From Spirochaetales bacterium (lineage in GTDB: Bacteria > Spirochaetota > Spirochaetia > DSM-2461), in the NCBI GenBank assembly GCA_022360655.1, contig JAKSCK010000116.1:20162-84161 (forward strand): DNA of 64,000 bases, written 5' to 3'. Position numbers and translations under genes: made by a program. This document shows positions 20,006-60,514 of this stretch, piece by piece. The notes under the pieces are model-generated. The model worked only from the letters and a program-made list of their open reading frames with translations, was not told where the DNA came from and did not search any database. The stretch's first letter is position 1. Every line of letters starts with the position of its first letter.

Positions 20006-21112
20006 TTATGACTTTCGCTGTTTCCTTACACTTAGAAACTCCTGAGGAAGTTGTTCTGGAGTGGTATCCAGAATATAGGCCACCAAATTTTGACCAAGGG
20101 ATGTGATGCGTTCCCGTACAAGGCTGTAGGTATAGTTCCGATTATCTTTTGTATGCTCTTGAATCAATCCGGCCGCTTTTAATCTTGAGAGATGCCGGGA
20201 AACCACAGAAGAGCAAAGTCCCAAACGTTGAGCCAGCCACTTCCCGTTCACAACCTGTTCATTGAGCGCAATGTATTTGAGCATACGAAGACGTTTATCA
20301 TCTCCCAAAGCTTTGAACACCTCAAGAACTCCTTCTTTGAGTTCTCGCCGGGCCTTGAGGGATTCCTCCACGCGATTCCCATTGTAAAGAACCACCATTT
20401 TCCCATCACGATAGAATGTGACGGAACGACAGCTTTGCATTCGGCTAGATGGTATGAACTCCACTCGCTTGAAAGGTTGCCAATGGGGGAGAGGATCTGG
20501 AATAGGTTTATCTCCGCATAAACGTTTATACATTCCTTCTATTCCTAACCGGGAAAGATCATTGCCATTCTCTCGAATACTTCCCTCCCAAGATTGTTTT
20601 AAAGCAGGAATTTCCTGGGAAAAAACCTGTTCCCAATAGGTGGTCCAAAGATCCAACAAATCAAGACGGAATTGAGGAATATTTTCTGCCCAACGCAAAT
20701 CCATGTACCATCGGGCATCATGACAATCTCCCCATTCTTCAATGATTTTCGCAATTTCTTGGATGTGAGGCTCGGAAGAAAGCTTGGAATACTCTGGCAA
20801 ACTTCCCAAGAGGTACCAAACAAAATCCCGTAAGGGCATGGCTTTCACCCAAGAAAGAAAACCAGAAACATCATGATAATCCTCCCATGCACAGGCGAAC
20901 TCCGTAAAAATCACACCATGATTGAAGGGTTTATACAGTGCTTCTACTTGCTCACGAAAGGATGAACCAAGCTGGTTTTTGACAGGTTCATGAATATTTG
21001 GAGGGCACCAGGGCATGCTCAACTGCTGCAACGAAACAAGCATCTCATGAAGGGGGCTGGCCGCGAAAACCGCCATGGCCTCCACGGACTGAAAAGACTG
21101 TTGGACCGGCAT
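20006..21112 (-). CDS. ArsR-type HTH regulator with a large uncharacterised N-terminal domain (DUF5937-like architecture)
   Basis: 368 aa. C-terminal ArsR/SmtB winged helix (FKALGDDKRLRMLKYI...LAQRLGLCSSVVSRHLSRLKAAGLI). About 260 aa of N-terminal region with no motif I recognise. AGGAG SD. Confidence 0.7.
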   Translation of the reverse strand: MPVQQSFQSVEAMAVFAASPLHEMLVSLQQLSMPWCPPNIHEPVKNQLGSSFREQVEALYKPFNHGVIFTEFACAWEDYHDVSGFLSWVKAMPLRDFVWYLLGSLPEYSKLSSEPHIQEIAKIIEEWGDCHDARWYMDLRWAENIPQFRLDLLDLWTTYWEQVFSQEIPALKQSWEGSIRENGNDLSRLGIEGMYKRLCGDKPIPDPLPHWQPFKRVEFIPSSRMQSCRSVTFYRDGKMVVLYNGNRVEESLKARRELKEGVLEVFKALGDDKRLRMLKYIALNEQVVNGKWLAQRLGLCSSVVSRHLSRLKAAGLIQEHTKDNRNYTYSLVRERITSLGQNLVAYILDTTPEQLPQEFLSVRKQRKS

Positions 21113-41037: not shown

Positions 41038-42090
41038 ATGACCATCAAGGACATTGCTCGAATCTCTGGAGTCACTCCAACAACAGTCTCCAATGTGATC
41101 AACAAACGAACCAGTCGAGTCTCCTCTGTGACGGTTCAGAAAGTTCTCTCTGTCATTGAACAAACTGGTTACATCCCCAATCGAAATGCCCGGGCTCTTG
41201 CCAGCAAATCCACACGAATCATTGGTGTGATTTTCCCCAAGGTGGCCGAAGGCCTTCTCCAAGATCCCTTCCACTCTCAACTTCTCAGTGGAATTGAAGC
41301 CGAAATTCGCCGCTGTGATTACTACTTGATGATTCACTCCATCTCCTCTTATCGCGATTTATACAACCTGATGGGAAACTGGAATGTGGATGGCATCATT
41401 GTGCTGAGTCTCCTGGATAATGAATCCCTTTGCCCTCAACGCATGGAATCCATCCCAACCGTTTTTATTGATGCCTATGATGTCATTGGAACCTTTCCAA
41501 ACATTGGATCACAAGATTATGAAGGAGCAATGCTGGCCACCAATCACCTCATCCAACAAGGGCATTCGCGCATTGGATTCATTGGCTATGATTCGGTGAT
41601 CATCTCACGAGCTTCTGTCATTTCTCAACGCATCAAAGGCTTTACCCAAGCCCTAGAAGACGCCCACATACCCTATTCCCCAAACAAGGATATCTTCACC
41701 TGCGGGCATGTCAAAAAAGCGACAGGGGAGGAAAGAAGGTCTCTTTTATCGTTCATCAAACAGCATTCTGCGGTTTTTGTGAGTGCAGATATTCTGGCCG
41801 TTGAAATCATGAAAATCCTTCGAGAGGAAGGCATCAATATCCCCAACGATCTTTCCATCATTGGGTATGACAACCTTCCCGTCTCGGAGTTGGTGAGCCC
41901 AACCCTCTCCACCATTTCCCAAAATATCCCACAAAAAGGGGCATTGGCAGCGCAGCAGCTCATCATGCAGATTGAGGGAGAGACTCCAACCAGTCCAATC
42001 CCTCCCCTCTCCAATTCTCTTGTTCTACGGGAATCAGTGGCACAATTCCCTGGTGAAGAGCCTTCGCTTCATCATCCTCGACCTAAGTGA
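41038..42090 (+). CDS. LacI family transcriptional regulator
   Basis: Start reassigned to the ATG 41038 (MTIKDIARISGVTPTTVSNVINK...). 350 aa. The upstream part of the track ORF is antisense to the SBP gene. Confidence 0.9.
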   Translation: MTIKDIARISGVTPTTVSNVINKRTSRVSSVTVQKVLSVIEQTGYIPNRNARALASKSTRIIGVIFPKVAEGLLQDPFHSQLLSGIEAEIRRCDYYLMIHSISSYRDLYNLMGNWNVDGIIVLSLLDNESLCPQRMESIPTVFIDAYDVIGTFPNIGSQDYEGAMLATNHLIQQGHSRIGFIGYDSVIISRASVISQRIKGFTQALEDAHIPYSPNKDIFTCGHVKKATGEERRSLLSFIKQHSAVFVSADILAVEIMKILREEGINIPNDLSIIGYDNLPVSELVSPTLSTISQNIPQKGALAAQQLIMQIEGETPTSPIPPLSNSLVLRESVAQFPGEEPSLHHPRPK

Positions 42091-44633
42091 TAGAGAGTCC
42101 GAAGCTCAATTCCGTCTATCCATTCTTCCCCGTTTTCCATCGAGAGCTCCCTCTCCTCAGGGAGGAACTCCAGTTGTCTGCGACTCCCAGGAAGAAGATC
42201 AAAGCCATTGTCCTTAAATCGACCCCTCACCGGGGTGTTTAAGGTCACCGCAAAAGCAGGAGCCTGGCACTCCACTTCAACGGTCCATGGGGATGATCCA
42301 GGCCCCAGAGATATTTTTGGATCTTGGAATTCACAATCACGCGGCACGGTCAAAAACAAGGTGGATTGAATGGGCTCATGCCCCTCAGGTTCCCACTGTG
42401 CCAGAGCAAAAACATGGGTCAATTCCTCCGCCACGACATCATCCGCACTGGTACAAAAGAGCGGGGAAGTGAAGGTCTTTCGACCATCCTCCGAAGAGAG
42501 AGATTTCAATTCTTCAGAGAAAAAAGGTTGAGAACAGTTTGCAGGACAGCATGTGAGCCCCTTGTGATACACGCGTTTTTCTTGTCCATCAAAGCCAAGA
42601 ATTTTAACCGTGAGCTCTCCACGAACCTCATCCATCGTATCATTCAAACCATGAACATGAAGCTGTCCATCTTTCTTGTACACAGCCAATCCAACCGGTG
42701 CAAAGAACCGCTTTGCAGCATAATGAAGGAGCTTCCAAGTCCCGTCATATTCAATACTCGACCATGATGCCACTGGCCAAAGATCATTCAATTGCCAATA
42801 CAGAGCTCCCATGCTGATGGGACGTTGACTTCGCCAATACTCCACAGCAGTTCGTATGGCCCAGGCCTGCTGAACCTGACTCAGCCAAAGAAATTCATCA
42901 AAAGCTGTTGGCATATGAAAATACCGCGCCATTGTCGTCAAAATAATGGAATTTCCTGCTGGATTTTTCTGATGATGCCGCATCACCGTCGATGTTACAT
43001 TCCAATCCTTCTCTTGCGCAAAAGAAGCAATGGTGCGCATACCTGGAAAAGACTGAAAACCAAACTCACTGCAGAATCGGGGGGTGATGTCATAGTAAGA
43101 TTCAAAGGGCAATCCTCCATGCCACACACTCCAGTAGTGCATGTCACCTTTTGTGTCATCATGCCAGCAATCAGAGTAATCACCTTCTCCAGCCGATGGA
43201 GAGGAGGGCCACCAAGTGCGCTCAGGATCGAGCTCTCGCACAACCCGGCCAACAACACCCTCATTCAGTCGGTCATAGTCCACCAAGTATCGATCCCGAT
43301 TCGCCTTGGATTCGGGATACCATGTCAGTGCACCAAGATCCTCATTGTTTCCGCACCAAAGGGCAATGCAGGGATGGTGAGCAAGCCGTTTTATCTGATG
43401 CTCCACTTCAGCCTCAACTTCCGCCAAGAACTTGGGGTGAGCCGGATAAAGGGAGCAGGAAAACATCATGTCGTGCCAAACCAATAATCCCAATTCATCA
43501 CAGAGATCATAAAAAATATCTCGCTCAAACTGGCCACCGCCCCAGAGTCGGATCATATTCATATTGGCTTCAACCGCATCTTGGAGCAAACGTTCATACA
43601 CCTCTGGAGTTTGCTTTGCTGGCATGGCATCCACAGGAATCCAGTTGGCTCCCTTGGCAAAAATATCTCGTCCATTCACCCGGAAGAACATGCTTCTTCC
43701 AACATCATCGTCTTCCACCACCACATCCACGGTACGGTAGCCAAAACGGCGAGTATGGCTCTCTTGCTCTACCTCAACCTCTGCAGTGGAGAGAGGCTGG
43801 CCTCCATGGCCAGCAGGCCACCACAATTCAGGAGAAGAAACCTGAAAACAGCATTCCACCTGGTTCTGCCCAGGTTGGACAGAAAAACGAATCATTTTCT
43901 TTTGCTCATCTAAAGTAAACAAAAACTCAAGTTCTTTTTCCTGATAAGCGGTGTATTCACATTGCAGCACAACTTCCCAGTGTTTCCCATGAGATTGGGG
44001 CCTCACCCGAAGATAATCCACCTGGCCACTGCCCCCAAATGAAAGCGTAGGGGCTTCATACATCCCACCTGTTAAAAGCGTTGGACCCCAGTCCCACCCC
44101 CCATGACAGGCCACTTTACGAATGAGATTTCGATGATCCCAATCCCAGGGAAGCCATTTGGAGTGGGGGATGGGATAGGGCAATTGAGCGGCTTCTTGGG
44201 CCGCAGCCTGAACAGGTGAATGAATGATGACTTCCAATTGATTCATCCCCACCATCAGCGCGGATTCAACAGAAAAACGATGCCGACGAAACATGTTTTG
44301 GCATGTCCCAAGAGAGATTCCATTAAGAATGATCTCAGCCACAGTATCAAGAAACTCAAACGTAATGGTTGCCGGATTTCCAGACATCCATTGGGATTCT
44401 CGAATCTCAAATTCCGTTTTAAGACTCCAATCCGTGTGCCCCACCCAAACCCAATCCAGCTCATGCCGGTCTTTGTAAGGATGGGGAAGACACCCCGCAG
44501 CCAAAAGATCAGAAGCAATATCCCCCGGTACCGAGGCCTGAAGGCTGGAAGGAAGATGACGGGACTCCTCAGGCATTGAGGGGGATTCCACCGCATGGAG
44601 AGTCCAATGTGAATCAAGTCGTAAGGTTTGCAT
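42072..44633 (-). CDS. Glycoside hydrolase family 2, beta-mannosidase-like (exo-beta-glucosaminidase not excluded)
   Basis: 853 aa. GH2 clan-A motifs WCGNNE (acid/base region) and FCSEFGFQSFP (nucleophile region), HYWSVWHG. No signal peptide. Its 3' end overlaps the LacI 3' end by 19 nt. Confidence 0.82.
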   Translation of the reverse strand: MQTLRLDSHWTLHAVESPSMPEESRHLPSSLQASVPGDIASDLLAAGCLPHPYKDRHELDWVWVGHTDWSLKTEFEIRESQWMSGNPATITFEFLDTVAEIILNGISLGTCQNMFRRHRFSVESALMVGMNQLEVIIHSPVQAAAQEAAQLPYPIPHSKWLPWDWDHRNLIRKVACHGGWDWGPTLLTGGMYEAPTLSFGGSGQVDYLRVRPQSHGKHWEVVLQCEYTAYQEKELEFLFTLDEQKKMIRFSVQPGQNQVECCFQVSSPELWWPAGHGGQPLSTAEVEVEQESHTRRFGYRTVDVVVEDDDVGRSMFFRVNGRDIFAKGANWIPVDAMPAKQTPEVYERLLQDAVEANMNMIRLWGGGQFERDIFYDLCDELGLLVWHDMMFSCSLYPAHPKFLAEVEAEVEHQIKRLAHHPCIALWCGNNEDLGALTWYPESKANRDRYLVDYDRLNEGVVGRVVRELDPERTWWPSSPSAGEGDYSDCWHDDTKGDMHYWSVWHGGLPFESYYDITPRFCSEFGFQSFPGMRTIASFAQEKDWNVTSTVMRHHQKNPAGNSIILTTMARYFHMPTAFDEFLWLSQVQQAWAIRTAVEYWRSQRPISMGALYWQLNDLWPVASWSSIEYDGTWKLLHYAAKRFFAPVGLAVYKKDGQLHVHGLNDTMDEVRGELTVKILGFDGQEKRVYHKGLTCCPANCSQPFFSEELKSLSSEDGRKTFTSPLFCTSADDVVAEELTHVFALAQWEPEGHEPIQSTLFLTVPRDCEFQDPKISLGPGSSPWTVEVECQAPAFAVTLNTPVRGRFKDNGFDLLPGSRRQLEFLPEERELSMENGEEWIDGIELRTLYHLGRG

Positions 44634-44818: not shown

Positions 44819-46009
44819 ATGGCACAGATACGAAAACCACGAATGATTAACACCTCCCGCATTCTTCGAGGGCTTTGGCTCTCCAGGCGAGTGAGTCGTA
44901 TCGGCCTTTCTCGGGATTTAGGACTCAACAAATCCACCATCACCAACATTGTGAATGAGCTGATTGAAGGAGGACTTGTGCGAGAAGCCTCCGCCGGTGT
45001 AGCCGGACCTCAAGGAGGAAGAAAGCCCGTTCATATCGAATTGAATCCACAGTATGGATATGTTCTTGGTTTAGAGATTCGACCTGAATCCTACACGGCC
45101 GTTGCCGTTGATCTTGCTGGAGATATTCTTTTTTCTCGCACAGAACGGCTTGATAGCCATCTTGAGAATTTTCAAAACAATGCCGTGGAGCTACTTCATA
45201 AAATTCCTCAAGAACTTCAATGGCTCAGCATTCCCATACTTGGAGCTGGCATTGGGATTTCGGGCATTGTGGATACCAAACAGGGAACCATCCTAGGTTC
45301 CATTCCCTTGGGCATCACAAAGATGCTGCCCTTCACACAAGCCATCACATCGCAATTCGATTTTCCCATTTTCATTGAAAATGACGCCAACTGCTGTGCT
45401 TGGGGAGAATTGGCTTTTCACCGTACCCAAAAACTCAAAAACTTCATCTTCACCCTTGTCGAATTCCACGATAATGAACGCAAATACTTTTATGAAAATA
45501 CATCCGTTGGTTTTGGAATGGTTTTTAACGGAAATGTGTACAAGGGAAATCGCTTCTCAGCGGGAGAATTTCACAGTGTCTTCTGTCACCCAGAGGACAA
45601 AGGACAGTTCCGCATCTCCAATGCTCGGGAACGAATAGAAGAAGTTCCCGAACACCTTGAAGCACTGGTTGAGGAGCTTTGCAAGCATCTGGCGCTCTTT
45701 GTGAATACGTTCAACCTGGGGCAAATATTCCTTGGGGGCGACATTGAACGTCACCAAAACTTGGTCACCCCCATCCTCCTCAAGGCCATAGAACAGAACT
45801 GGGCCTATGACAGCCCTGTGGAATGTGAAATTCGCTTTTCCACCCTTGGTAATAAATCTGTGGCCTATGGAGCCGCAGGAATGGTTTTAGAACAACTCTT
45901 TGCCGATCCAGATTCCGCTACCGCTGCAGGCATCCACGCGATGGGTCAGCGCGGAACTTTACTTGGTTTCATTGATTCAGAAAAAAAGGGCTCAAAAGAG
46001 CTCTCATAA
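44819..46009 (+). CDS. ROK family transcriptional regulator (NagC/XylR-like)
   Basis: 396 aa. N-terminal wHTH (ISRIGLSRDLGLNKSTITNIVNELIEGGLV) plus a ROK sugar-kinase-like fold (ENDANCCAWGE). Confidence 0.88.
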   Translation: MAQIRKPRMINTSRILRGLWLSRRVSRIGLSRDLGLNKSTITNIVNELIEGGLVREASAGVAGPQGGRKPVHIELNPQYGYVLGLEIRPESYTAVAVDLAGDILFSRTERLDSHLENFQNNAVELLHKIPQELQWLSIPILGAGIGISGIVDTKQGTILGSIPLGITKMLPFTQAITSQFDFPIFIENDANCCAWGELAFHRTQKLKNFIFTLVEFHDNERKYFYENTSVGFGMVFNGNVYKGNRFSAGEFHSVFCHPEDKGQFRISNARERIEEVPEHLEALVEELCKHLALFVNTFNLGQIFLGGDIERHQNLVTPILLKAIEQNWAYDSPVECEIRFSTLGNKSVAYGAAGMVLEQLFADPDSATAAGIHAMGQRGTLLGFIDSEKKGSKELS

Positions 46010-46037
46010 TATCTCCCTAAGGGGAATGGAGGAAACA

Positions 46038-47321
46038 ATGAAAAAAGCGCTCGCATTTTTGTTTGTCTGCCTGGCGCTCACCGGCATGGCCTTTGCCAAT
46101 GGTGCCGATGAAAAAGGCGATTCTGAGCGAATCACCCTGAATGTGATGGGTTACGGCGATAACTCAAACCAAGAAGGAATCAGCTGGCGACGAATGGTCA
46201 CCACCTTCCAAGAAGAGAATCCCAACATCACCATTGTGGATGAGCTCTTGTATGACCAAGCCTACCATCAGAAGGTCACAGCCCGTCTTGCAGCAGGTGA
46301 TGCTCCTCACTTGGCCTACATGGGTGCCGATGCACGCTGGGGAGCTCCCTGGAAAGAAGCGGGAATGCAGATTGATAACCGCCCCTACATTGATACCAAT
46401 CTTTTTGACATGAATCTCATTCCTGAAATGGGCCCCAACGGTGAACGTTATTATCTTCCCATTGGAACCTCCAACATCACCACCGTTCTTTTCATGAATG
46501 AACCTCTTGTTCAATCTCTTGGATTCGCCGCCCCTGAAACCTATGCAGATTTGGTTGCCATGGTCCCCGCAGCCAAGGCTGCCGGACTTCAGGTTGTATC
46601 CATCGATGGGGCAGATGGATGGGCCTGGGGCTCCTGCCTCCTATCCGCCCTCATTGCTCGAACCTCTGGTGACACTCAATGGGTATCCAAAGCCGTTGCT
46701 GGTGAGAACGCCTTTGATGATGAGGCCATGGTGAAGGCTCTGGGCTTGATTGAAACCATGGTGGCTGACGGTGTTATTGATTCCAAGAATGTTCTGGTGG
46801 ACTACGGCTCCAACATCTCTGCTTTTTCCAATGAACAGGCTCTCTTCTTTGTTCAAGGTCAATGGGCCGCCGGTGGTGTGGAAAATACCGATGTTCGAAA
46901 TTCCATGAAACTCATGGCCTGGCCCACTCTTCCCGGACAGAAGAGTGGTATGGAAGGTTCAGTTGCTGCAGCATGGAGTGTTGGATACGGTCTCACAAAA
47001 CGAGCGGAAGATGACGGTGTGCAAGAGGCCGCTGCCAAGTTCCTGGCCTATGTGAATCGCGTGGAAGAATCCACTCAACGCCTGCGGGACGGAGCCATTG
47101 TGGCCCCTGTGAACAAGGGCTACGTGGTTCCTGATGACCTTCCTGTGGAAGTGGCTCAGAAAGTGGCTCTGGCTCAAAGCTCTCTGAACACAGAAGTGAT
47201 TGATGCCTTCCTGACCGGACCTCCCAACGACGCATTGAATGCCGGCATGCAGAAAATTGCTGCTGGTGAAGCAACCGCTGCTGAGGTTGCGGCTGAGGTG
47301 GAAGCCCTGGCTCGTCAGTAA
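46038..47321 (+). CDS. CUT1 sugar ABC transporter substrate-binding protein
   Basis: Start set to the ATG 46038, 5 nt after GGAGG. Signal peptide MKKALAFLFVCLALTGMAFA. 427 aa. Confidence 0.88.
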   Translation: MKKALAFLFVCLALTGMAFANGADEKGDSERITLNVMGYGDNSNQEGISWRRMVTTFQEENPNITIVDELLYDQAYHQKVTARLAAGDAPHLAYMGADARWGAPWKEAGMQIDNRPYIDTNLFDMNLIPEMGPNGERYYLPIGTSNITTVLFMNEPLVQSLGFAAPETYADLVAMVPAAKAAGLQVVSIDGADGWAWGSCLLSALIARTSGDTQWVSKAVAGENAFDDEAMVKALGLIETMVADGVIDSKNVLVDYGSNISAFSNEQALFFVQGQWAAGGVENTDVRNSMKLMAWPTLPGQKSGMEGSVAAAWSVGYGLTKRAEDDGVQEAAAKFLAYVNRVEESTQRLRDGAIVAPVNKGYVVPDDLPVEVAQKVALAQSSLNTEVIDAFLTGPPNDALNAGMQKIAAGEATAAEVAAEVEALARQ

Positions 47322-47330
47322 AAAGTACCA

Positions 47331-47362
47331 AGGGTGTCAGAGGTCTCTGGCACCCTTTTTTT
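47331..47362 (+). terminator. Rho-independent terminator/attenuator after the SBP gene
   Basis: agggtgtcaga-ggtc-tctggcaccct (11-bp stem with one G-U pair) followed by tttttt. Confidence 0.8.
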
Positions 47363-47437
47363 GTCAGAGACCTCATCGGCCCGCTCCAGAAACCTGTTTG
47401 GGAGCAGACCGATACGGCCTGTGGCCGAGGAGAACCC

Positions 47438-48352
47438 ATGAATCCACGTGACAAACGAAAATTGCTCGGCTATGCCGGGTTTATCGCTCCAGGATTGGCC
47501 ATCTATTTATTTATTGTGGCCTATCCTGTCATTTACTCCATAGGATTGAGTTTCACTGACTACAATCCAAATCGTGGAGGAGAATGGAGTTTTGTTGGCC
47601 TTCTCCAGTACAAAACCATGTTCTCTAATCCTATGTTCTGGCATTCCCTTAAAAACAACATGATTGTGGTAGCAGTGAGTGCCTTTGGCCAAATCCCCAT
47701 TGGATTTGCCTTGGCTTACATTTTGTACCGAGGACTTGTGAAAGGAAGGGATTTCTTTCAATCCATGGTATTTCTTCCCCAATTCCTTTCCCCTATTGTG
47801 ATTGGGATTCTCTTCCGAAAACTGGTTGGTGCCGATGGACCTGTTTCCCGCCTTCTTCAACTCATGAGTGGCGATCCTGGGAAACAATTCACCCTCATGC
47901 TCAAAAGTGGGACGGTTATGCTTCCCATAGCCTTTGCTCTCTTATGGATGTACACCGGTTTTTACATGGTGATCTTTCTGGCCAATCTGCAAAAAATTGA
48001 TTCCCATGTTATTGAAGCGGCCAAGATTGATGGGGCCAGTGAAACTCAAATATTTGGAAGGGTTATTGTTCCCATGCTTTCCGGAACCATTCTTGTCACA
48101 ACCATCCTGGCCATTGCCGGCTCCCTCAAGGGATTTGATCTGATTTTTGCCATCACCACAGAAGGACTCCAGCGAAACAACGCCATGGTACTTCCTATTT
48201 TCATGTATCAAACGGCATTCCAGGATTACACCAACACCATGCGCTTTGCCTTTGGATCTGCCATTTCCAATGCCATTGTGGTGATTTCTGTGGCCCTCAT
48301 TGGTGTGGCCAATGCCGTTGCCAAGCGCTTTAACGCAGGGGAGATTGGCTGA
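47438..48352 (+). CDS. Sugar ABC transporter permease (MalF-like)
   Basis: 304 aa, EAA loop (VIEAAKIDGASETQIF). Confidence 0.88.
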   Translation: MNPRDKRKLLGYAGFIAPGLAIYLFIVAYPVIYSIGLSFTDYNPNRGGEWSFVGLLQYKTMFSNPMFWHSLKNNMIVVAVSAFGQIPIGFALAYILYRGLVKGRDFFQSMVFLPQFLSPIVIGILFRKLVGADGPVSRLLQLMSGDPGKQFTLMLKSGTVMLPIAFALLWMYTGFYMVIFLANLQKIDSHVIEAAKIDGASETQIFGRVIVPMLSGTILVTTILAIAGSLKGFDLIFAITTEGLQRNNAMVLPIFMYQTAFQDYTNTMRFAFGSAISNAIVVISVALIGVANAVAKRFNAGEIG

Positions 48353-49449
48353 TGAAAACTCAAGAAAATCACAACTTCCGCGTTGGAACCATCCTCTCCT
48401 ACATCCTCTTTCTGGGATGGACCCTCCTCACCATCCTCCCTCTCTTCTGGATGGCCTACTCTTCCTTCAAATCCAATGAAGAACTCACCCGTGACATCTA
48501 TGCCTTTCCCAAAGATCTCTTTGAAAACGTGGATGATGAATATGTGGTCATTGCTCCCTCTTTGAATCTGATGATGCCGAAAGAGGTGCGTTCAGCCACC
48601 TCTGAATACCTCATCATTGAATCCACAAGCATTGCTCCTAATCGCCTTCTCATGGTGCATTACCTCCCCAAAAAAGACTTAGATCCTCATGTGGCCCAAA
48701 GAAAAACTGGGGACAAAATTTACGTCAATGAACTTCCTCGGCGACTCCAACGTCAGGTGAATCGCACCACAATCTGGTTCAATTACACCTCAGCCTTCCG
48801 ACGTGGTGCCCTGGGAGGAAAATTCCTCAACAGCATTCTTTATGCCAGTGTGTCCACATTCTTGATGGTGTTTTTCAGTCTCATGATTGGTTACGCTGTG
48901 AGTAAATTCCCCTTCAAGAAGCTCTCAGCTGTGGTGATGGGTTTGATTGGTGTGGGATATCTCATCAGCACCAATTCGGTCATCATCCCTCTCTTCCTCA
49001 TGCTCTCCAACCTGTCACTCACCGATACCCATGTTGGCATCATCTTGGTGTACACCGCCTTTGGTATTCCCATGTCGGTGCTCCTGGCCTCACAATTCAT
49101 ACGCGGCCTCCCCGACAGCCTCATTGAATCCGCGGAAATTGATGGTGCTGGAATGTTCCGAGCCTTTCGAAGCATCATCATTCCCATGACGGTTCCCGTC
49201 ATCATTACCATCTCCATCATCAATGCCCTGGGAATCTGGAATGAATTCCTGTTGGTTCTGGTCCTGGCCAGCAAGGAAATCACCAAATCTTTGCCTGTGG
49301 GTGTGTACTCATTCTCCAGTCTCACCAGCACTCAACTGGGATGGCAATTAGCCGCCTTGGTGATTGCCACCCTTCCCACCATGCTGGTGTACTTCTCCTT
49401 CAATAGGAGAATCACACGAGGCGTGGTGGCAGGAGCTGTAAAAGGTTAA
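48352..49449 (+). CDS. Sugar ABC transporter permease (MalG-like with a ~100-aa periplasmic insertion)
   Basis: 365 aa. TGATG overlap with the upstream permease. EAA loop (LIESAEIDGAGMFRAF). Confidence 0.88.
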   Translation: MKTQENHNFRVGTILSYILFLGWTLLTILPLFWMAYSSFKSNEELTRDIYAFPKDLFENVDDEYVVIAPSLNLMMPKEVRSATSEYLIIESTSIAPNRLLMVHYLPKKDLDPHVAQRKTGDKIYVNELPRRLQRQVNRTTIWFNYTSAFRRGALGGKFLNSILYASVSTFLMVFFSLMIGYAVSKFPFKKLSAVVMGLIGVGYLISTNSVIIPLFLMLSNLSLTDTHVGIILVYTAFGIPMSVLLASQFIRGLPDSLIESAEIDGAGMFRAFRSIIIPMTVPVIITISIINALGIWNEFLLVLVLASKEITKSLPVGVYSFSSLTSTQLGWQLAALVIATLPTMLVYFSFNRRITRGVVAGAVKG

Positions 49450-49614
49450 GCATTTCCGGCCCCCCGCAGGGGTCGGATTACACCACCCCGATTTGTCCAT
49501 GGACTCACCTCACAGAGTGATGCAAAGATGGTAAGTGCGGAGGCTTCTCCTTGCTGCCTCAAAGAAGGGCAAACCAAGGAAGACTCCACTGGAACACATT
49601 CACAGGAGTCCCAT

Positions 49615-50796
49615 ATGTTGAAGGGTAACGCCCTCGTCGGCCAGTCCGGCGGCCCCACCAGCGTCATCAATTCCAGCCTTCAAGGCGTCATTCAAGCCGC
49701 GAAAGCTTCTTCTGTCATTGAGACAGTTTATGGAATGAAATTCGGAATCGACGGCTTCATGGCTGATCAGTTGTGGAATCTCAGCACCCAAAGTGATGCC
49801 GTGGTGGCAGGATTGTCCTCCACCCCCTCATCCGCTCTTGGCTCCTCCCGTTACAAACTCAAAGATGCAGACCTCCCTGCCGTGCGGGATGCCTTGGAGC
49901 GCCATAATATTCGCTATTTCTTCCTCATTGGTGGAAATGACACCATGGATACCGTCCATCGTGTGGAAGCCTACTGCCGAGAAAATGGGTATGAGCTACG
50001 CGGCATTGGCATTCCCAAAACCGTGGACAATGACCTCTTTGGCACAGACCATACCCCCGGCTATCCCTCTGCTGCTCGCTACAATGCCCTTTGTGTTCAG
50101 CAGTCTGGCCGATTAGCCCGGGACATGCGAAAAGTGGATTCTTTTGTGGTGTATCAAACCATTGGGCGTGATGCCGGTTGGCTTGCCGCTGCCACGGCCC
50201 TGGCCAGAAAAGAAGAGGGAGACGCCCCCCACCTCATCTACTGCCCCGAACGCCCCTTTGATAAAGAAGCGTTCTTAGAAGATGCCCAGGCCTGCATCAA
50301 AAAGCATGGCTTTGTCAGTGTGGTGGTGAGTGAAGGCCTCAAATATGCCGATGGCACTCCCGTAAGTGCCTCAGGAACCCAAGATAAATTTGGCAACACC
50401 GAATACGGTGCCATGGGTGGTTCCAGTGTGGGCCTCAATGTCCACAAGATTCTGGCCGAAGCCACCGGCCTCCGGGGAGAATTCCAAATCACCGAATCCC
50501 TTCCCATGTGTGCCATTGACCGGGCCGAAGCTGCGGACATTGAACGTGCCAATGGTTGTGGAAAAGAAGCCGTACGCCTGGCGGAAGCTGGAGAAACCGG
50601 CTTCATGGTCACCATTGATCGCACAGATTCTGGCTTCACCTACGGCAAAGCCCCCCTCTCCTCTGTGGCCGTGCGTGCCAAAGAAATGCCCGAAGAAATG
50701 ATCAACGACCGGGGAAATGACATCACCGAAGCCTTCATGGACTACATCCGTCCCTTGGTCACCCCCCTTCCTGAATACGTGAGTTTGGAGGCCTAG
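49615..50796 (+). CDS. PfkA-family phosphofructokinase paralog with PPi-type active-site residues
   Basis: Start at the ATG 49615 after CAGGAG. GQSGGPTSVIN, IGGNDT (Asp at the position that is Gly in ATP-PFKs) and IPKTVDND (Lys at the position that is Gly in ATP-PFKs). Confidence 0.8.
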   Translation: MLKGNALVGQSGGPTSVINSSLQGVIQAAKASSVIETVYGMKFGIDGFMADQLWNLSTQSDAVVAGLSSTPSSALGSSRYKLKDADLPAVRDALERHNIRYFFLIGGNDTMDTVHRVEAYCRENGYELRGIGIPKTVDNDLFGTDHTPGYPSAARYNALCVQQSGRLARDMRKVDSFVVYQTIGRDAGWLAAATALARKEEGDAPHLIYCPERPFDKEAFLEDAQACIKKHGFVSVVVSEGLKYADGTPVSASGTQDKFGNTEYGAMGGSSVGLNVHKILAEATGLRGEFQITESLPMCAIDRAEAADIERANGCGKEAVRLAEAGETGFMVTIDRTDSGFTYGKAPLSSVAVRAKEMPEEMINDRGNDITEAFMDYIRPLVTPLPEYVSLEA

Positions 50797-50797
50797 A

Positions 50798-51580
50798 ATG
50801 AGTCGTTTTGCCAAAAATCTGCTCATCATCCAGGCCCATCCTGATGATGCTGAGGCCTGGAGTGCCGGAACCCTCTCCCTTCTGAAGGACAAAGGCTGGA
50901 CCATCACCATTGCCTCCCTCACCGCTGGCAACATGGGTGGCGTGGGCATGAGTGAAGAAGAAACCGTGGCCACCCGCGTGGAAGAAGCCAAGGCTGCCGC
51001 CGCCGCCCTGGGCGCTAACTTCCACTGTTTTATGCGTCGGGATGCCTATCTTTTTGACAGCGAAGAACTCCGCATTGAAGTGGTGTCCTTGATTCGCAAG
51101 GTCAAAGCTGGTGTGGTGATTACCCATGCCCCCTTTGATTACCATCAAGACCACCGCACCACCTGCCAGGTGGTGGATGCTGCTGCCATTGTGTCCTCCC
51201 TCCCCAATGTTCCCAGCCCGGAACCTCCCCTGGACATCACTCCTTTGCTTTACCATGGCATGCCCATGAGCCTTTCTGACCCATTGGGAAATCCTGTCCC
51301 GGAACCCCACTTTTTTGTGGACATTTCTGGGAAGCCCATGGAAAAGAAAATGGAAATGCTCACCCACCATAAAACCCAGCAGGATTTGATGCGCCTCATG
51401 CACAAAATGGACGACTTCTTTGGGGAAATGCGCATCTTCAACGCCGAACTCGGCGCCATGGTGGGATGTGCAGAAGCCGAATGCTACTGGCAGCATCTTG
51501 GGGGGGGGTACCAAAAAGATCCTCTGCTCCAAGAGGAACTGGCCCCCTACATTCGCCACAGAGAAGAAAACCAGAAATAG
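50798..51580 (+). CDS. PIG-L/LmbE family de-N-acetylase
   Basis: 260 aa. AHPDD motif (LLIIQAHPDDAEAW) and HxDH motif (DYHQDHRTT). The ATG is 1 nt after the PFK stop. Confidence 0.85.
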   Translation: MSRFAKNLLIIQAHPDDAEAWSAGTLSLLKDKGWTITIASLTAGNMGGVGMSEEETVATRVEEAKAAAAALGANFHCFMRRDAYLFDSEELRIEVVSLIRKVKAGVVITHAPFDYHQDHRTTCQVVDAAAIVSSLPNVPSPEPPLDITPLLYHGMPMSLSDPLGNPVPEPHFFVDISGKPMEKKMEMLTHHKTQQDLMRLMHKMDDFFGEMRIFNAELGAMVGCAEAECYWQHLGGGYQKDPLLQEELAPYIRHREENQK

Positions 51581-51624: not shown

Positions 51625-51844
51625 TCATCACAGATTGGACCAAAAAAGCAGTCGCTGAGGAACATCCTCACCTTGCTTCTTCTTTTTTCCACTCTGTCCT
51701 AGACTAGGAAGCACCAAGAATCCTGCTCATCCAACAAAGATTCTTGGATCAGAACTTTTGGCCCAATCCCATCCCAAAGGATGAATCCGGCCAATGGAGG
51801 ATTGGAACCTTCGTCAGACCAAGGTTCCCAACATAGGAGATCTC

Positions 51845-52852
51845 ATGAACAATACCGACGCCAAATACACCCGTTTTGCCCTCTGTAAAGAGATGCTGGA
51901 AACCCCCGATGTGATGCGCAACTTCAATGCCGAATCCGTAGCCCCCCTGGCTGCCCTGGTCAAAGATGCCTCCAAAATCATGCTCACCGGAGAAGGGTCC
52001 AGCCGCATCTTCCCCGCCAAACGCGCCATTGTGGAAGCCCTGCGCCAGGGTCTCACGGCTCCTGTCACCGAAGGCGCCACCCAGGCCATGGAATATAGAC
52101 TCAGTGACTATGGCATCCTTGGCGCTTCCAACTCCGGACGCACACGGGAACTGGTTCGCCTCTTCCGCAAACTCCGAGAAGAAGGCCATAAACAGTTGGC
52201 CGGCCTCTGTGCCCACCCCAACACCCCCTTAGAAGAGGCCTCTGACGCCTACATGGTTCTGGGTTGCGGTAATGAAGAAGCCGTGGCCGCCACCAAGAGC
52301 GTAGCCGAGCAGGCCATGGCCTGGCAGACCCTCTTTGCCTCCCTCAATGGCCAGGAACTCCCCCCCGTGGAACAGGGAGCCGCCGCTGTGCAGCAAGCCC
52401 TCACCGTGGACGTTCCTGAAGAATTCAGCAGCGCCATGGCCAATGCCCGCACCATCTTCTTTGCCGGACGCAATGACGGCGTGGCCGAAGAACTCACCCT
52501 CAAAACCAATGAGATTGTCCGCAAAACCTCCGATTTCCTCGAAGGCACCTATGTGGCCCACGGAATTGAGGAAATCATGCGGGAAGATGACGTCATCATT
52601 CTGGTGAACCCCTTCCCCGAAGAAGAAGAGAAGATTCGCGAGTGTGTGGCTCAAGGTGTTGGCGCCAAAGTCTTTGCCATTGCCTCACGTGACACCCTCT
52701 TCCCCACCCTTCGCGTCCCCGAAGCGGGAGAATGGAATGAATACGTCCTCCTGGCCGCCGGTTGGAACCTCCTGGTAGAAGCCGGAATTGCCGCCGGAAT
52801 TGACCTGGACAAACCCGAACGCGCCCGTAAAGTCGGTAACGAAGTCGACTAA
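51845..52852 (+). CDS. Double-SIS-domain sugar-phosphate isomerase/deaminase-like protein (GlmS isomerase-domain, GlmD/AgaS/FrlB type)
   Basis: Start at the ATG 51845, 4 nt after AGGAGA. SIS motifs (IMLTGEGSSRIF, GASNSGRTRE, EEAVAATKS). 335 aa and no glutaminase domain. Confidence 0.8.
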   Translation: MNNTDAKYTRFALCKEMLETPDVMRNFNAESVAPLAALVKDASKIMLTGEGSSRIFPAKRAIVEALRQGLTAPVTEGATQAMEYRLSDYGILGASNSGRTRELVRLFRKLREEGHKQLAGLCAHPNTPLEEASDAYMVLGCGNEEAVAATKSVAEQAMAWQTLFASLNGQELPPVEQGAAAVQQALTVDVPEEFSSAMANARTIFFAGRNDGVAEELTLKTNEIVRKTSDFLEGTYVAHGIEEIMREDDVIILVNPFPEEEEKIRECVAQGVGAKVFAIASRDTLFPTLRVPEAGEWNEYVLLAAGWNLLVEAGIAAGIDLDKPERARKVGNEVD

Positions 52853-52892
52853 ACCATAATCTCCAGAATCCTCTCTTGTTGATTTTGGAGAA

Positions 52893-52911
52893 GCCCCGCC
52901 TCTGGCGGGGC
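52893..52911 (+). terminator. GC hairpin after the SIS gene
   Basis: gccccgcc-tct-ggcggggc, a perfect 8-bp stem 41 nt after the stop. No U-tract. Confidence 0.4.
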
Positions 52912-53046
52912 CGGGCTATCCGGGGCTCCGGCTCTCGCCTTCGGCCCCGCATGCGCGGGTCCCCTGCGGGCCCCTCCTATCCCTCTTCCACACCTCTTTT
53001 CCCACCATGGGTGACCTGGGCACCAGAGCACCGTTATACTTCCCCC

Positions 53047-55116
53047 ATGAGTGAATTGCGCCTGCGCCCCTTGGATAGACTCGGCTTTGATTTTGTTCCT
53101 CCCCTCAGCGGTCATGAATCTCCCTCCGATCCCCCCCTTCCTGGCCGCCCGCTCACCCCCGAGGAAATCCACATCTTAGAGAAGCAAGGAAACCAGGCCG
53201 ATGACTGGAGCCACCTGCGTGTTCGAGAGGGTTTTTCCCCAAAACGTGTCCAAAACTGCCAATTCTACGGCATGGTGAGCCTGGGTGCCCTCTCTCCTTC
53301 CTACCTGGAATTCCATGACCTTCGCCTTCCCGTCGGCCTCTCCAACTGCACCATTGTGTCCAGCATCCTGGGGGACAACGTGGCTCTCCACAACCTAGGT
53401 TTTCTCTCCCGTTTTGAGATTGGAAATCGCTGCATCCTGTTCAACATTGATGAAATGATCACCACCGACCATGCCAAATTTGGCAACGGCGTGGTGATGG
53501 ATGGTGAGGATGAAGAGGTGCGCATCTGGCTGGAATTGGCCAATGAAAATGGGGGCCGCAAAGTGCTACCCTTTGATGGGATGCTCCCTGCTGATGCCTG
53601 GATTTGGTCCAAGTACCGGGGAGATGAGACACTCATGAACCGCTTTGTGGCCATGACCAATGCGCAACATTCCAGCACCCGAGGGAAACGCGGCCGCATC
53701 GCCAATGACGTTGTCATCAAAGATTGCCGCATCCTCAAAGATGTGCGGATTGGCCAACGGGCCTATGTGAAGGGATGCAACAAGCTCAAAAACCTCACCG
53801 TGAACAGCGATGCTCAACGCCCCACCCAGTTGGGAGAAGGTTGTGAATTGGTGAATGGCATTGTGGGCTATGGTTGCCGCATTTTTTACGGTGTGAAAGC
53901 CGTACGATTCATCCTGGGCGACCATGCCAACCTCAAATACGGAGCCCGACTCATCAACTCTATTCTTGGATCCAATTCCACCATCAGTTGCTGTGAAGTG
54001 CTCAACTCCCTCATCTTTGGCTCCCATGAACAGCACCACAACTCCTCCTTTCTTTGCGCCACCGTTCTGCAGGGACAAAGCAACATGGCCTCCGCCGCCA
54101 CCGTGGGCTCCAATCACAATTCCCGATCCAATGATGGAGAAATTGTGGCCAACAGAGGCTTCTGGCCAGGCCTGAGCGTGAGTCTCAAACACAACTCCCG
54201 CTTTGCCGCCTACTGCCTGGTGGCCAAAGGAGCCTACCCGGCCGAATTGGATGTGCAGCTTCCTTTCTCCTTGGTCTCCAACAGTCCTGATTCTTCGGAA
54301 TTGGTGCTCATGCCTGGATACTGGTTCCGCCACAACATGTATGCCTTGGCCCGCAATTCGGCCAAAGCCAGGGCTCGAGATGCGCGGCTGATTCGCCACC
54401 AAGAGCTGGAATACCACTGGCTGGCTCCAGACACCGTAGACCAAATGCGAAGAGCCCGCCGGCTCTTGGAAGAGTGGTGCCCCCAAGGCAAAGAATTTCT
54501 TGAAACTCAAGAGATGGAGGCCATCACGCTTTCCGGAGAAAGATGGGTGGAGAACTCCACCCGACCGGTGCGCATACTGCGCGCCGGAAGAGGCTGGCAG
54601 GATTACGGCCGCCTCATTCGCTACTATGCCGTCACCACCCTCGCAGAAGCATCTGGTGCTCCTGACAGCCCTTCTTCAACATCCCCTTGGATCAACTTGG
54701 GTGGGCAATTGGTGAGAGAACACGATTTATCGCAATTGATGGACGATGTTCGCCAGGAGCGTCTGAGCACCTGGGAGGATGTTCATCATCGTTACCAGGA
54801 GCTGGGAAAGAACTACTCCAAGGCCAAAGAGGCCCATGCTCGCCGCATTCTTTGGGAGGAAGTTCCAGAAAGTCAGGGGCTGCTCACCAAGGATCTTCTC
54901 GAGGAAGCTCTTCATACTGCGGCATTCTTGCACAATGGAATTCGAGAAAGTCGAATGAAGGATGATGTGAATCCCTTTCGGCACATCACCTTTGATGATG
55001 AGGCTGAAAAAGATGCCGTATTGGGCACTCTGAAAGACAACCCCTTCCTTGAAGAAGCAGAACGGGATTATCAACGCACCAAAAACATTCTGGAAAACGG
55101 TTTCAAAACACTCTAA
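53047..55116 (+). CDS. DUF4954-like large uncharacterised protein with beta-helix-like repeats
   Basis: 689 aa from the ATG 53047 (an alternative in-frame ATG at 52951 lies inside the GC-rich leader). The N-terminal LTPEEIHILEKQGNQADDWSHLRV resembles the conserved DUF4954 N-terminus as I recall it. The central region has short repeats of hydrophobic-x-x-x-x-hydrophobic periodicity. Confidence 0.6.
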   Translation: MSELRLRPLDRLGFDFVPPLSGHESPSDPPLPGRPLTPEEIHILEKQGNQADDWSHLRVREGFSPKRVQNCQFYGMVSLGALSPSYLEFHDLRLPVGLSNCTIVSSILGDNVALHNLGFLSRFEIGNRCILFNIDEMITTDHAKFGNGVVMDGEDEEVRIWLELANENGGRKVLPFDGMLPADAWIWSKYRGDETLMNRFVAMTNAQHSSTRGKRGRIANDVVIKDCRILKDVRIGQRAYVKGCNKLKNLTVNSDAQRPTQLGEGCELVNGIVGYGCRIFYGVKAVRFILGDHANLKYGARLINSILGSNSTISCCEVLNSLIFGSHEQHHNSSFLCATVLQGQSNMASAATVGSNHNSRSNDGEIVANRGFWPGLSVSLKHNSRFAAYCLVAKGAYPAELDVQLPFSLVSNSPDSSELVLMPGYWFRHNMYALARNSAKARARDARLIRHQELEYHWLAPDTVDQMRRARRLLEEWCPQGKEFLETQEMEAITLSGERWVENSTRPVRILRAGRGWQDYGRLIRYYAVTTLAEASGAPDSPSSTSPWINLGGQLVREHDLSQLMDDVRQERLSTWEDVHHRYQELGKNYSKAKEAHARRILWEEVPESQGLLTKDLLEEALHTAAFLHNGIRESRMKDDVNPFRHITFDDEAEKDAVLGTLKDNPFLEEAERDYQRTKNILENGFKTL

Positions 55117-55125
55117 ATCGAAAAT

Positions 55126-55145
55126 CCCCGGCGCAAGCGCCGGGG
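55126..55145. terminator. Bidirectional GC hairpin between convergent genes
   Basis: ccccggcg-caag-cgccgggg, a perfect 8-bp stem. An A-run upstream gives a U-tract for the minus-strand ClC transcript. Confidence 0.65.
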
Positions 55146-60441: not shown

Positions 60442-60514
60442 GCCGCTGTAGCTCAGTTGGTAGAGCAGTGGACTGAAAATCCATGTGTCAAGAGTTCAAA
60501 TCTCTTCGGTGGCA
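60442..60514 (+). tRNA. tRNA-Phe (anticodon GAA), no encoded CCA
   Basis: Hand-folded cloverleaf: acceptor gccgctg/cggtggc, D arm gctc-agttggta-gagc, anticodon arm gtgga-ctGAAaa-tccat, variable loop gtgtc, T arm aagag-ttcaaat-ctctt, discriminator A. Confidence 0.93.

Follow-up and report, generated by a model that had tools for sequence, protein, structure and literature searches.

The DUF4954 gene and its sugar locus

We analysed 64,000 nucleotides of contig JAKSCK010000116.1 from a Spirochaetales bacterium (hereafter the window, i.e., positions 20,162 to 84,161 of the contig) with regard to one gene, whose product carries the Pfam domains DUF4954 and DUF6819. The gene is an uninterrupted frame of 689 codons and the opposite strand of the same interval is full of stops, which confirms the open reading frame (ORF) of the original prediction, made from the letters alone. 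The frame stays open in 5' direction to a TTG at 52876. Since homologues align from residue 1 of the product of the ATG at 53047 (M1 is invariant, coverage 99-100%), this ATG is the supported start. The segments quoted in the prediction are found at residues 36-59, 218-252 and 262-325, and its statement that the protein is cytoplasmic, with no transmembrane segment or signal peptide, agrees with a polar N-terminus and a maximal Kyte-Doolittle mean of 1.22 over 19 residues.

With regard to family membership, DUF4954 (PF16314) matches residues 34-476 with 187.9 bits (cut-off 26.2, E 3.5e-55), in line with the DUF4954-like nature assumed before, and DUF6819 (PF20683) matches residues 538-624 with 25.1 bits (cut-off 23.5). 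A word-indexed protein search scored at least 8,000 relatives, aligned over the full length at 45-63% identity, whose names come from Spirochaetes, Chitinophagaceae and other Bacteroidota, and Phycisphaerae. An exhaustive search gave 1,719 clusters at 50% identity, 305 of them with E below 1e-30. In literature searches we found no functional data on DUF4954, PF16314 or TP0851; DUF4954 is mentioned only incidentally, in two papers, and PF16314 in none. Sequence searches of the PDB with the protein and with an 84-sequence profile returned only short matches to left-handed beta-helices (LbH) and no solved relative. Both observations agree with the earlier claim that the family has no characterised member.

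The gene is the last forward-strand gene of a run that encodes a ROK regulator, a solute-binding protein, two permeases, a pyrophosphate-dependent phosphofructokinase, a PIG-L protein, a SIS protein and the DUF4954 protein (Table 1). The locus looks like one for import and catabolism of a disaccharide containing N-acetylglucosamine (GlcNAc) via glucosamine-6-phosphate (GlcN-6-P), for which the SIS-only protein is likely the deaminase (NagB-II/GlmD type). No ATPase gene for the importer lies in the locus. The listed ORF of the solute-binding protein overlaps the 3' end of the ROK gene by 110 nt, and because of this overlap its true start is probably located 3' of the listed TTG. A sugar kinase is encoded neither in the window locus nor in the related loci L157 and L158; that is, the enzymes of the window locus act on a phosphorylated amino sugar, yet the locus is without a sugar kinase.

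Between the SIS and the DUF4954 gene, the spacer contains a perfect GCCCCGCC/GGCGGGGC hairpin without T-tract, and an Rfam search of the spacer found no family. Its possible identities are an attenuator, a processing site or an element of the repetitive extragenic palindromic type. The sole Rfam match in the window is a tRNA gene at 60442-60514.

Table 1. Positions of the described features in the window, with the evidence used for each (AF2, AlphaFold2 model).
Feature	Positions	Strand	Basis
DUF4954/DUF6819 protein gene, 689 aa, clade B	53047..55116	+	translation, Pfam, homologues, tree
Predicted N-terminal beta-rich region and two helices, residues 34-215, with E167 in NENGGR motif	53146..53691	+	AF2, invariants
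Predicted left-handed beta-helix core, residues 216-422, superposes on GlmU acetyltransferase domain	53692..54312	+	AF2, Foldseek, profile-profile alignment
Invariant block in beta-helix loops, E317 to L376, presumed active site	53995..54195	+	84-sequence alignment
Predicted C-terminal helical domain, residues 425-689 (DUF6819 at 538-624)	54319..55113	+	Pfam, AF2, invariants
GH2 beta-mannosidase, divergent	42072..44633	-	E about 1e-149 to BtMan2A-type beta-mannosidases
ROK-family regulator, N-terminal winged helix-turn-helix (NagC/Mlc-like)	44819..46009	+	profile searches
Sugar ABC importer: solute-binding protein and two permeases	45900..49449	+	ORF list, profile searches
Pyrophosphate-dependent phosphofructokinase paralogue	49528..50796	+	NF010675, 404.8 bits vs cut-off 273
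PIG-L family de-N-acetylase	50798..51580	+	best solved relatives: archaeal diacetylchitobiose deacetylases, E 3e-14
SIS-only, GlmS-C-terminal-like protein	51794..52852	+	closest to NagB-II deaminase 8eol
Structured G+C-rich spacer, 194 nt, SIS gene to DUF4954	52853..53046	+	fold z-score -3.66 vs shuffles
G+C-rich hairpin between convergent DUF4954 and ClC genes, terminator-like	55126..55145	.	sequence

Predicted fold and invariant residues

We modelled the protein with AF2 from an 84-sequence alignment, which replaced a 34-sequence run with a predicted local distance difference test score (pLDDT) of 65. The resulting model reaches a pLDDT of 93.1 and a predicted template modelling score of 0.92. 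It shows a beta-rich part at about residues 57-132, two helices at 181-207, a beta-helix at 216-422 and a helical part at 425-689. The N-terminal region is not a Rossmann-type nucleotidyltransferase, i.e., it is beta-rich in the model and has no match to NTP_transferase.

A Foldseek comparison with the PDB places LbH domains of GlmU on all 13 top ranks, followed by LpxD, LpxA and QdtC. The best match is 4fce (E 4.9e-5, about 200 aligned columns), and the lowest root-mean-square deviations among the GlmU fold matches are 3.4-4.7 A. Profile-profile alignment to the GlmU LbH gives a probability of 95-96% and an E of 1e-9. At the level of the model, the left-handed beta-helix is solid. This specifies the earlier expectation of a beta-helix of the hexapeptide type as left-handed; the helical C-terminal third is likewise recovered. 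The resemblance to GlmU is one of fold only and not a match to a characterised family. Among the structural neighbours, every catalytic LbH enzyme is an acyltransferase.

Sequence-level similarity is best to non-catalytic LbH domains, namely those of eIF2B epsilon/gamma and of mannose-1-phosphate guanylyltransferases, at about residues 258-328. Pfam LbH_EIF2B stays under its cut-off (34 vs. 54 bits, residues 218-328), an NCBIfam search gave LbH matches only at chance level, and by their sequence the hexapeptide repeats are degenerate. Profiles of gamma-class carbonic anhydrases match at chance level as well (E 0.04-4), and none of these enzymes is among the top 50 fold matches. DUF4954 is catalogued only as a domain of unknown function. 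Its fold is known from LbH acyltransferases; its architecture and motifs are new, as is the role proposed here.

Three identities were considered and rejected. GlmU (TIGR01173) or an alternative/archaeal GlmU (TIGR03991/TIGR03992) was dismissed for lack of a TIGR01173/TIGR03991 match and of an NTP_transferase match. A GNAT of the GNA1 type finds no Acetyltransf (GNAT) match and the model is an LbH. For NagA or another amidohydrolase, there is no Amidohydro match and the fold is an LbH rather than a TIM barrel.

Across the 84 sequences, whose identity falls as low as 28%, we found 24 invariant positions, most of which are occupied by His, Glu, Asp, Arg, Lys, Asn or Ser. Within the N-terminal region and the beta-helix these are E167, E317, H327, H331, S334, F335, G343, N346, G354, S355, N356, N358, R360, E365, G371, F372, W373, L376 and P406, while the C-terminal domain holds N430, K440, D462, R636 and D639. 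Three loop insertions in the beta-helix carry invariant motifs. As far as the alignment tells, the invariant set looks like an active site and not like a scaffold, and H327 and H331 could bind a metal.

Two fusions were seen among the relatives. In a metagenomic protein of 751 aa (P0209), a HAD-family phosphatase/mutase domain is fused N-terminally to the DUF4954 and DUF6819 body. In a second protein (P0199), a truncated DUF4954 is combined with a sialate O-acetylesterase domain, which may be an assembly or frameshift artefact.

Neighbourhoods, clades and gene inventories

We compared 57 DUF4954 loci, among them that of the window, drawn from an even sample of Spirochaetota and Bacteroidota genomes. 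For 37/57 loci, a co-directional gene lies at most 300 bp upstream, which is NagB in 9 and GlmS in 6 loci. Within five genes we observe NagB 14 times, GlmS 9 times, a SIS deaminase twice and NagA once (directly upstream of DUF4954), such that at least one of them is present in 25/57 loci. About half of the sampled loci are without an amino-sugar neighbour; copies from Bacteroidales and Treponema are found among housekeeping genes (e.g., hflX, nadC, dnaN and AIM24). Among the 80 best-matching genome loci, full-length glmS (831 bits) is directly upstream in 58, mostly in Chitinophagales and relatives. Four further metagenome contigs add one more case of upstream glmS and are otherwise uninformative.

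Four non-homologous enzymes with GlcN-6-P as common metabolite are thus recurrent partners of DUF4954, in all three clades of the family (see below) and at least two phyla. When adjacency is mapped onto the tree (starred branches), NagB changes at least four times and GlmS at least three times, by gain or loss, and the clustering of neighbour labels exceeded that of 200/200 shuffles. Two relatives of the window protein at 62-63% identity keep PIG-L and SIS ahead of DUF4954. One is preceded, in order, by a solute-binding protein, two permeases, PIG-L and SIS, a second one by two permeases, GH20, phosphofructokinase, PIG-L and SIS; a 63%-identical relative has no sugar genes upstream and keeps the ClC neighbour. 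The original prediction had regarded an acyl- or nucleotidyltransferase-like fold next to a deacetylase and a deaminase as an unusual pairing. The pairing is there, but it recurs in the family's loci and is therefore not an oddity; it is a conserved and informative family feature.

A tree of 62 members resolves three deep clades (approximate likelihood-ratio test support 99-100). Clade A (about 660-685 aa) includes the Bacteroidales copies. Clade B (700-790 aa) holds the window protein together with copies from Treponema, Chitinophagales and some Planctomycetota, and clade C (about 615-650 aa) was found in Spirochaetota alone. In the clade-B part of the tree, the window protein and the copy from a Spirochaetaceae metagenome-assembled genome group with a Phycisphaerae sequence and the Bacteroidota (Chitinophagales) set and not with Treponema, which hints at horizontal transfer between phyla.

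The clades also differ in their neighbours. An acyl carrier protein (ACP) and an HMGL-like synthase are encoded directly downstream of clade A DUF4954 in 5 loci. The clade A loci L099, L112, L113, L129 and L130, which come from both phyla, show the order (NagA or NagB) - DUF4954 - ACP - HMGL-like synthase - NagB. This recurrent cluster suggests that the clade A paralogues have an acetyl-carrier pathway of their own; around clade-B genes, the sampled loci show neither ACP nor HMGL. Clade-B DUF4954 is preceded by murI, the glutamate racemase gene, in two Bacteroidota loci (L116:4227-8440 and L117:4935-5744, from genomes G337 and G345). In the former, a SIS-only GlmS-like gene follows murI and DUF4954, and it seems possible that its product is an ammonia-dependent GlcN-6-P synthase in a cell-wall operon.

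Next to neighbourhoods, we assessed the phyletic pattern in 151 Spirochaetota and 201 Bacteroidota genomes. GlmU-like genes were defined by a TIGR01173 match at 1e-30, and for genomes whose locus was not fetched the clade was assigned from Pfam score and ORF length. DUF4954 is present in 72/151 and GlmS in 128/151 Spirochaetota genomes. A GlmU-like gene occurs in 0/25 clade-B genomes and in 59/126 other Spirochaetota genomes (Fisher p 1.6e-6, a test that ignores kinship). Clade B alone shows such exclusion, and it is directed at GlmU-like genes in general, i.e., at the N-terminal uridylyltransferase domain, and not specifically at the acetyltransferase domain. For Bacteroidota, the GlmU acetyltransferase domain is found in 0/201 and an N-terminal-only GlmU in 80/201 genomes. 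In published work (Renzi et al., PMC4358021), the GlmU of Bacteroidetes was described as commonly consisting of the uridylyltransferase half alone, such that the acetyltransferase is missing, and the gap was read as most Bacteroidetes being auxotrophs. In 20 genomes, we found no stand-alone acetyltransferase next to N-terminal-only glmU. In Leptospira-like and other spirochaetes this short glmU is part of a conserved operon (L223-L233, L242), whose downstream genes, given their sizes only, would match B. subtilis gcaD-prs-ctc-pth; DUF4954 is absent from these genomes.

A complete T. pallidum-like genome (G088), a single contig of 1,139,633 bp with the DUF4954 gene near 922 kb, allows for a full inventory, for which we ran tblastn against all of its sequence. 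Entry WP_010882295.1 of T. pallidum is located at 920,441-922,615, matching this position (PMC6953169). GlmS is present with 56-57% identity to E. coli, DUF4954 with 43%, and orthologues of two proteins of the source genome, i.e., the genome of the window, are found: a 591-aa phosphohexomutase (42%) and a divergent 297-aa nucleotidyltransferase (40%). NagA, NagB, SIS deaminase, PIG-L, GlmU and UDPGP gave no match, and the absence of any Pfam Hexapep match means that no other hexapeptide protein is encoded. Since amino-sugar catabolism is missing, the only hexosamine role left for this DUF4954 lies between GlmS and UDP-GlcNAc, i.e., it is anabolic. On this path, N-acetylation is the sole step without a candidate, in an inventory where GNAT-type candidates were not screened.

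The source genome (90% complete) likewise encodes GlmS, the mutase, the nucleotidyltransferase and DUF4954, with NagA in addition, and shows neither GlmU nor an alternative GlmU at this completeness. It also contains an operon of a DegT aminotransferase, a 189-aa hexapeptide acetyltransferase and a UDP-GlcNAc 2-epimerase (G000:C146:200533-203290; L082:332-3089). Because of this operon, the organism should make and tailor UDP-GlcNAc although no GlmU was found. The 189-aa protein, which matched GlmU, was rejected as its substitute, since its place between DegT and the 2-epimerase marks it as a nucleotide-sugar tailoring enzyme.

For the uridylyltransferase step, the 297-aa protein (G000:C274:102226-103119 in the source genome; G088:C1:1002270-1003322, i.e., L159:1270-2322) belongs to a divergent type of 297-350 aa that is conserved in the source genome and in the T. 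denticola-like and T. pallidum-like genomes. It matches the uncharacterised PDB entry 3pnn (E 4.8e-86), is weakly similar to the N-terminal part of the archaeal GlmU family and is a candidate for the GlcNAc-1-phosphate uridylyltransferase of GlmU-less spirochaetes. Two other proteins were discarded for this step: eukaryote-type UAP (PF01704) is absent from the source and the T. pallidum-like genome, and a 379-aa NTP-transferase near glmS is ManC-like. Neither the mutase nor the 3pnn-type transferase adjoins DUF4954 in any of 137 loci.

A possible role at the glucosamine-6-phosphate branch point

Given these observations, we tentatively favour that the DUF4954 protein is a hexosamine-phosphate N-acetyltransferase at the GlcN-6-P branch point. 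We infer chemistry, substrate, donor and direction from the GlmU-like fold, the invariant polar residues, the linkage to GlcN-6-P enzymes and the HAD fusion, as well as from the mutual exclusion of clade B and GlmU, the inventory of the T. pallidum-like genome and the missing acetyltransferase of Bacteroidetes (PMC4358021). With acetyl-coenzyme A (CoA), or possibly ACP, as donor, the protein would acetylate a hexosamine phosphate at its amino group, GlcN-6-P being the most probable substrate, and would thus be a non-homologous stand-in for the GlmU acetyltransferase domain and eukaryotic GNA1. In the window, the PIG-L enzyme would remove the N-acetyl group of an imported amino sugar, which would end up as GlcN-6-P; this the SIS deaminase would convert to fructose-6-phosphate for entry into glycolysis via the phosphofructokinase paralogue. 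DUF4954 would share the GlcN-6-P substrate with the deaminase and divert part of the pool, including that derived from GlmS, to GlcNAc-6-phosphate, from which the 591-aa phosphohexomutase and the 297-aa nucleotidyltransferase encoded elsewhere in the genome could produce UDP-GlcNAc.

Several findings weigh against this assignment. Pfam Hexapep stays under its cut-off (20 vs. 27 bits, residues 218-328). The preferred, i.e., better-scoring, profile alignment puts the catalytic His363 of GlmU opposite Y281 and leaves the motifs HEQHH, GSNHNSR, DGE and GFWPG in loops without GlmU counterpart. Another register, counted by hand from the spacing, has E317/H331/R360 opposite GlmU E349/H363/K392. Since the register is ambiguous, we gave up the transfer of GlmU catalytic residues by alignment and claim no active-site equivalence. 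In the source genome, NagA and a GlcN-6-P acetyltransferase would form a futile cycle unless regulated.

The phyletic pattern is in part unfavourable, too. GlmS is missing in 7/25 clade-B genomes, and DUF4954 is absent from many Leptospira-like genomes whose GlmU is N-terminal-only. A full-length GlmU is found in only 7/151 Spirochaetota genomes, and 7/7 of these also carry DUF4954 of clade A or C, while only 19/201 Bacteroidota genomes have DUF4954. We therefore rejected the idea that DUF4954 complements the GlmU acetyltransferase domain in all lineages. Since no Bacteroidota genome has that domain and so few have DUF4954, the family is not the sole solution to the missing Bacteroidetes acetyltransferase. 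Lineages that lack both must have another acetyltransferase, which could exist here as well.

How does this compare with other explanations? The protein might catalyse other chemistry at the hexosamine-phosphate node, i.e., transfer of a non-acetyl acyl group, combined acetyl and uridylyl transfer as a full GlmU analogue, phosphotransfer or isomerisation. A sugar kinase is indeed the step missing from the window, L157 and L158 loci, the anticorrelation of clade B concerns the uridylyltransferase domain of GlmU, and both the N- and the C-terminal domain hold invariant residues. Yet the N-terminal region is beta-rich, non-Rossmann and without nucleotidyltransferase match, the source and T. pallidum-like genomes have their separate, conserved 3pnn-type nucleotidyltransferase, no P-loop was seen by eye in the sequence (no motif search was run), we know of no LbH kinase, and the catalytic structural neighbours are all acyltransferases. 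We thus consider other chemistry unlikely. Deacetylation is an improbable option: as a metal-dependent amidohydrolase (NagA analogue) or a reverse acetyltransferase onto the thiol of CoA or ACP, the protein would deacetylate GlcNAc-6-phosphate and so supply NagB or the SIS deaminase. This option is attractive for clades A and C. DUF4954 directly after nagB mirrors the classical nagB-nagA pair, ACP and the HMGL-like acetyl-condensing enzyme follow clade A DUF4954 in the 5 loci, and the invariant H327-x3-H331 comes with invariant acidic residues, an arrangement that may be akin to the metal sites (His-His-Asp) of de-N-acetylases. For clade B, the option is contradicted by redundancy and by the reduced genome. 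PIG-L is already encoded in the window locus and in those of its relatives, the source genome has NagA, and in one locus NagA directly precedes DUF4954. The T. pallidum-like genome keeps DUF4954 without NagA, NagB or a deaminase besides GlmS, where deacetylation would be purposeless. Furthermore, the linkage of clade B to glmS and murI is anabolic, its genes have no ACP or HMGL gene nearby, and moving an acetyl group from an amide to a thioester is thermodynamically unfavourable.

That the protein regulates or senses hexosamine flux without catalysis, by binding GlcN-6-P, UDP-GlcNAc or GlmS/NagB, is, in our view, no more probable than deacetylation. GlmR regulates GlmS in Firmicutes and the inactive GMPPA subunit regulates GMPPB, i.e., there are precedents. 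The best sequence matches are non-catalytic LbH domains, the catalytic His of GlmU is not recovered by alignment, the distribution is patchy such that the protein appears replaceable, and adjacency to GlmS and NagB suits a regulator equally. On the other hand, such a role sits poorly with 24 invariant, mostly polar or ionisable residues over three deep clades and several phyla, with 45-50% identity over 700 aa between phyla, and with the retention of the gene in a reduced genome of 1.14 Mb, and the HAD phosphatase fusion suggests sugar-phosphate metabolism. Finally, the function could be unrelated to amino sugars, with the neighbourhood signal due to shared locus ancestry or chance. The half of the sampled loci without amino-sugar neighbour, the Bacteroidales and Treponema copies beside hflX, nadC, dnaN and AIM24 and the 63%-identical relative without upstream sugar locus would fit. 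Such a coincidence is nevertheless very improbable given four non-homologous GlcN-6-P enzymes that recur in three clades and at least two phyla, with at least four (NagB) and at least three (GlmS) independent gains or losses and a clustering beyond 200/200 shuffles.

When the N-acetyltransferase assignment is related to known systems, the C-terminal domain of GlmU (glucosamine-1-phosphate N-acetyltransferase, EC 2.3.1.157; PDB 4fce, 2oi6, 1hm8) is closest. It shares an LbH of about 200 residues, as the best structural match, and the proposed chemistry and pathway, and glmS is a neighbour of DUF4954 just as it is of glmU in the glmUS operon of E. coli. In contrast to GlmU, DUF4954 has no N-terminal nucleotidyltransferase domain, is extended by a beta-rich region at the N-terminus and by a helical C-terminal domain of 265 residues, bears its invariant motifs in loop insertions that GlmU lacks, and would probably act on a 6-phosphate instead of a 1-phosphate. 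Eukaryotic GNA1 (glucosamine-6-phosphate N-acetyltransferase, EC 2.3.1.4) catalyses the reaction proposed here for DUF4954, i.e., acetylation before an AGM1-like mutase and a separate uridylyltransferase, but it has a GNAT fold such that DUF4954 would be its analogue and not its homologue. LpxA, LpxD and QdtC share the LbH fold as second tier of matches, and the ACP genes beside clade-A paralogues recall the acyl-ACP donors of LpxA/LpxD; however, these are much smaller enzymes that act on nucleotide sugars, their motifs differ, and they are not linked to GlcN-6-P enzymes. The LbH domains of eIF2B epsilon/gamma and GDP-mannose pyrophosphorylase, despite the best sequence-level similarity, are short oligomerisation or regulatory modules behind a nucleotidyltransferase domain and are without the invariant polar block. 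NagA occupies the same position next to nagB as DUF4954 does in many loci, but is an amidohydrolase TIM barrel and coexists with DUF4954 in the source genome and in one locus.

A more far-reaching version of the N-acetyltransferase assignment, which we regard as doubtful, sees DUF4954 as a new beta-helix enzyme class at the GlcN-6-P node. Clade B would be the long-missing GlcN-6-P N-acetyltransferase and, together with the 590-aa phosphohexomutase and the 3pnn-type uridylyltransferase, give a GlmU-independent route to UDP-GlcNAc in the order known from eukaryotes. In clades A and C, which are linked to NagB and have an ACP and an HMGL-like synthase to themselves, this chemistry would serve another pathway of acetyl handling.

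Bacteria cannot build peptidoglycan without UDP-GlcNAc, and GlmU, which is regarded as universal among them, is considered a drug target. A GlmU acetyltransferase is missing from Treponema (including the genome matching the syphilis agent), Bacteroides and Chitinophagales. A biochemical assignment of DUF4954 would close part of this hole in the UDP-GlcNAc pathway. A family that has more than 8,000 matches in the protein search and forms about 300 clusters at 50% identity would thereby gain a function. If the assignment is true, the family would represent a new architecture among beta-helix acyltransferases and a lineage-specific cell-wall enzyme. Even if the acetyltransferase reading is wrong, DUF4954 is the most consistently conserved unknown partner of NagB and GlmS.

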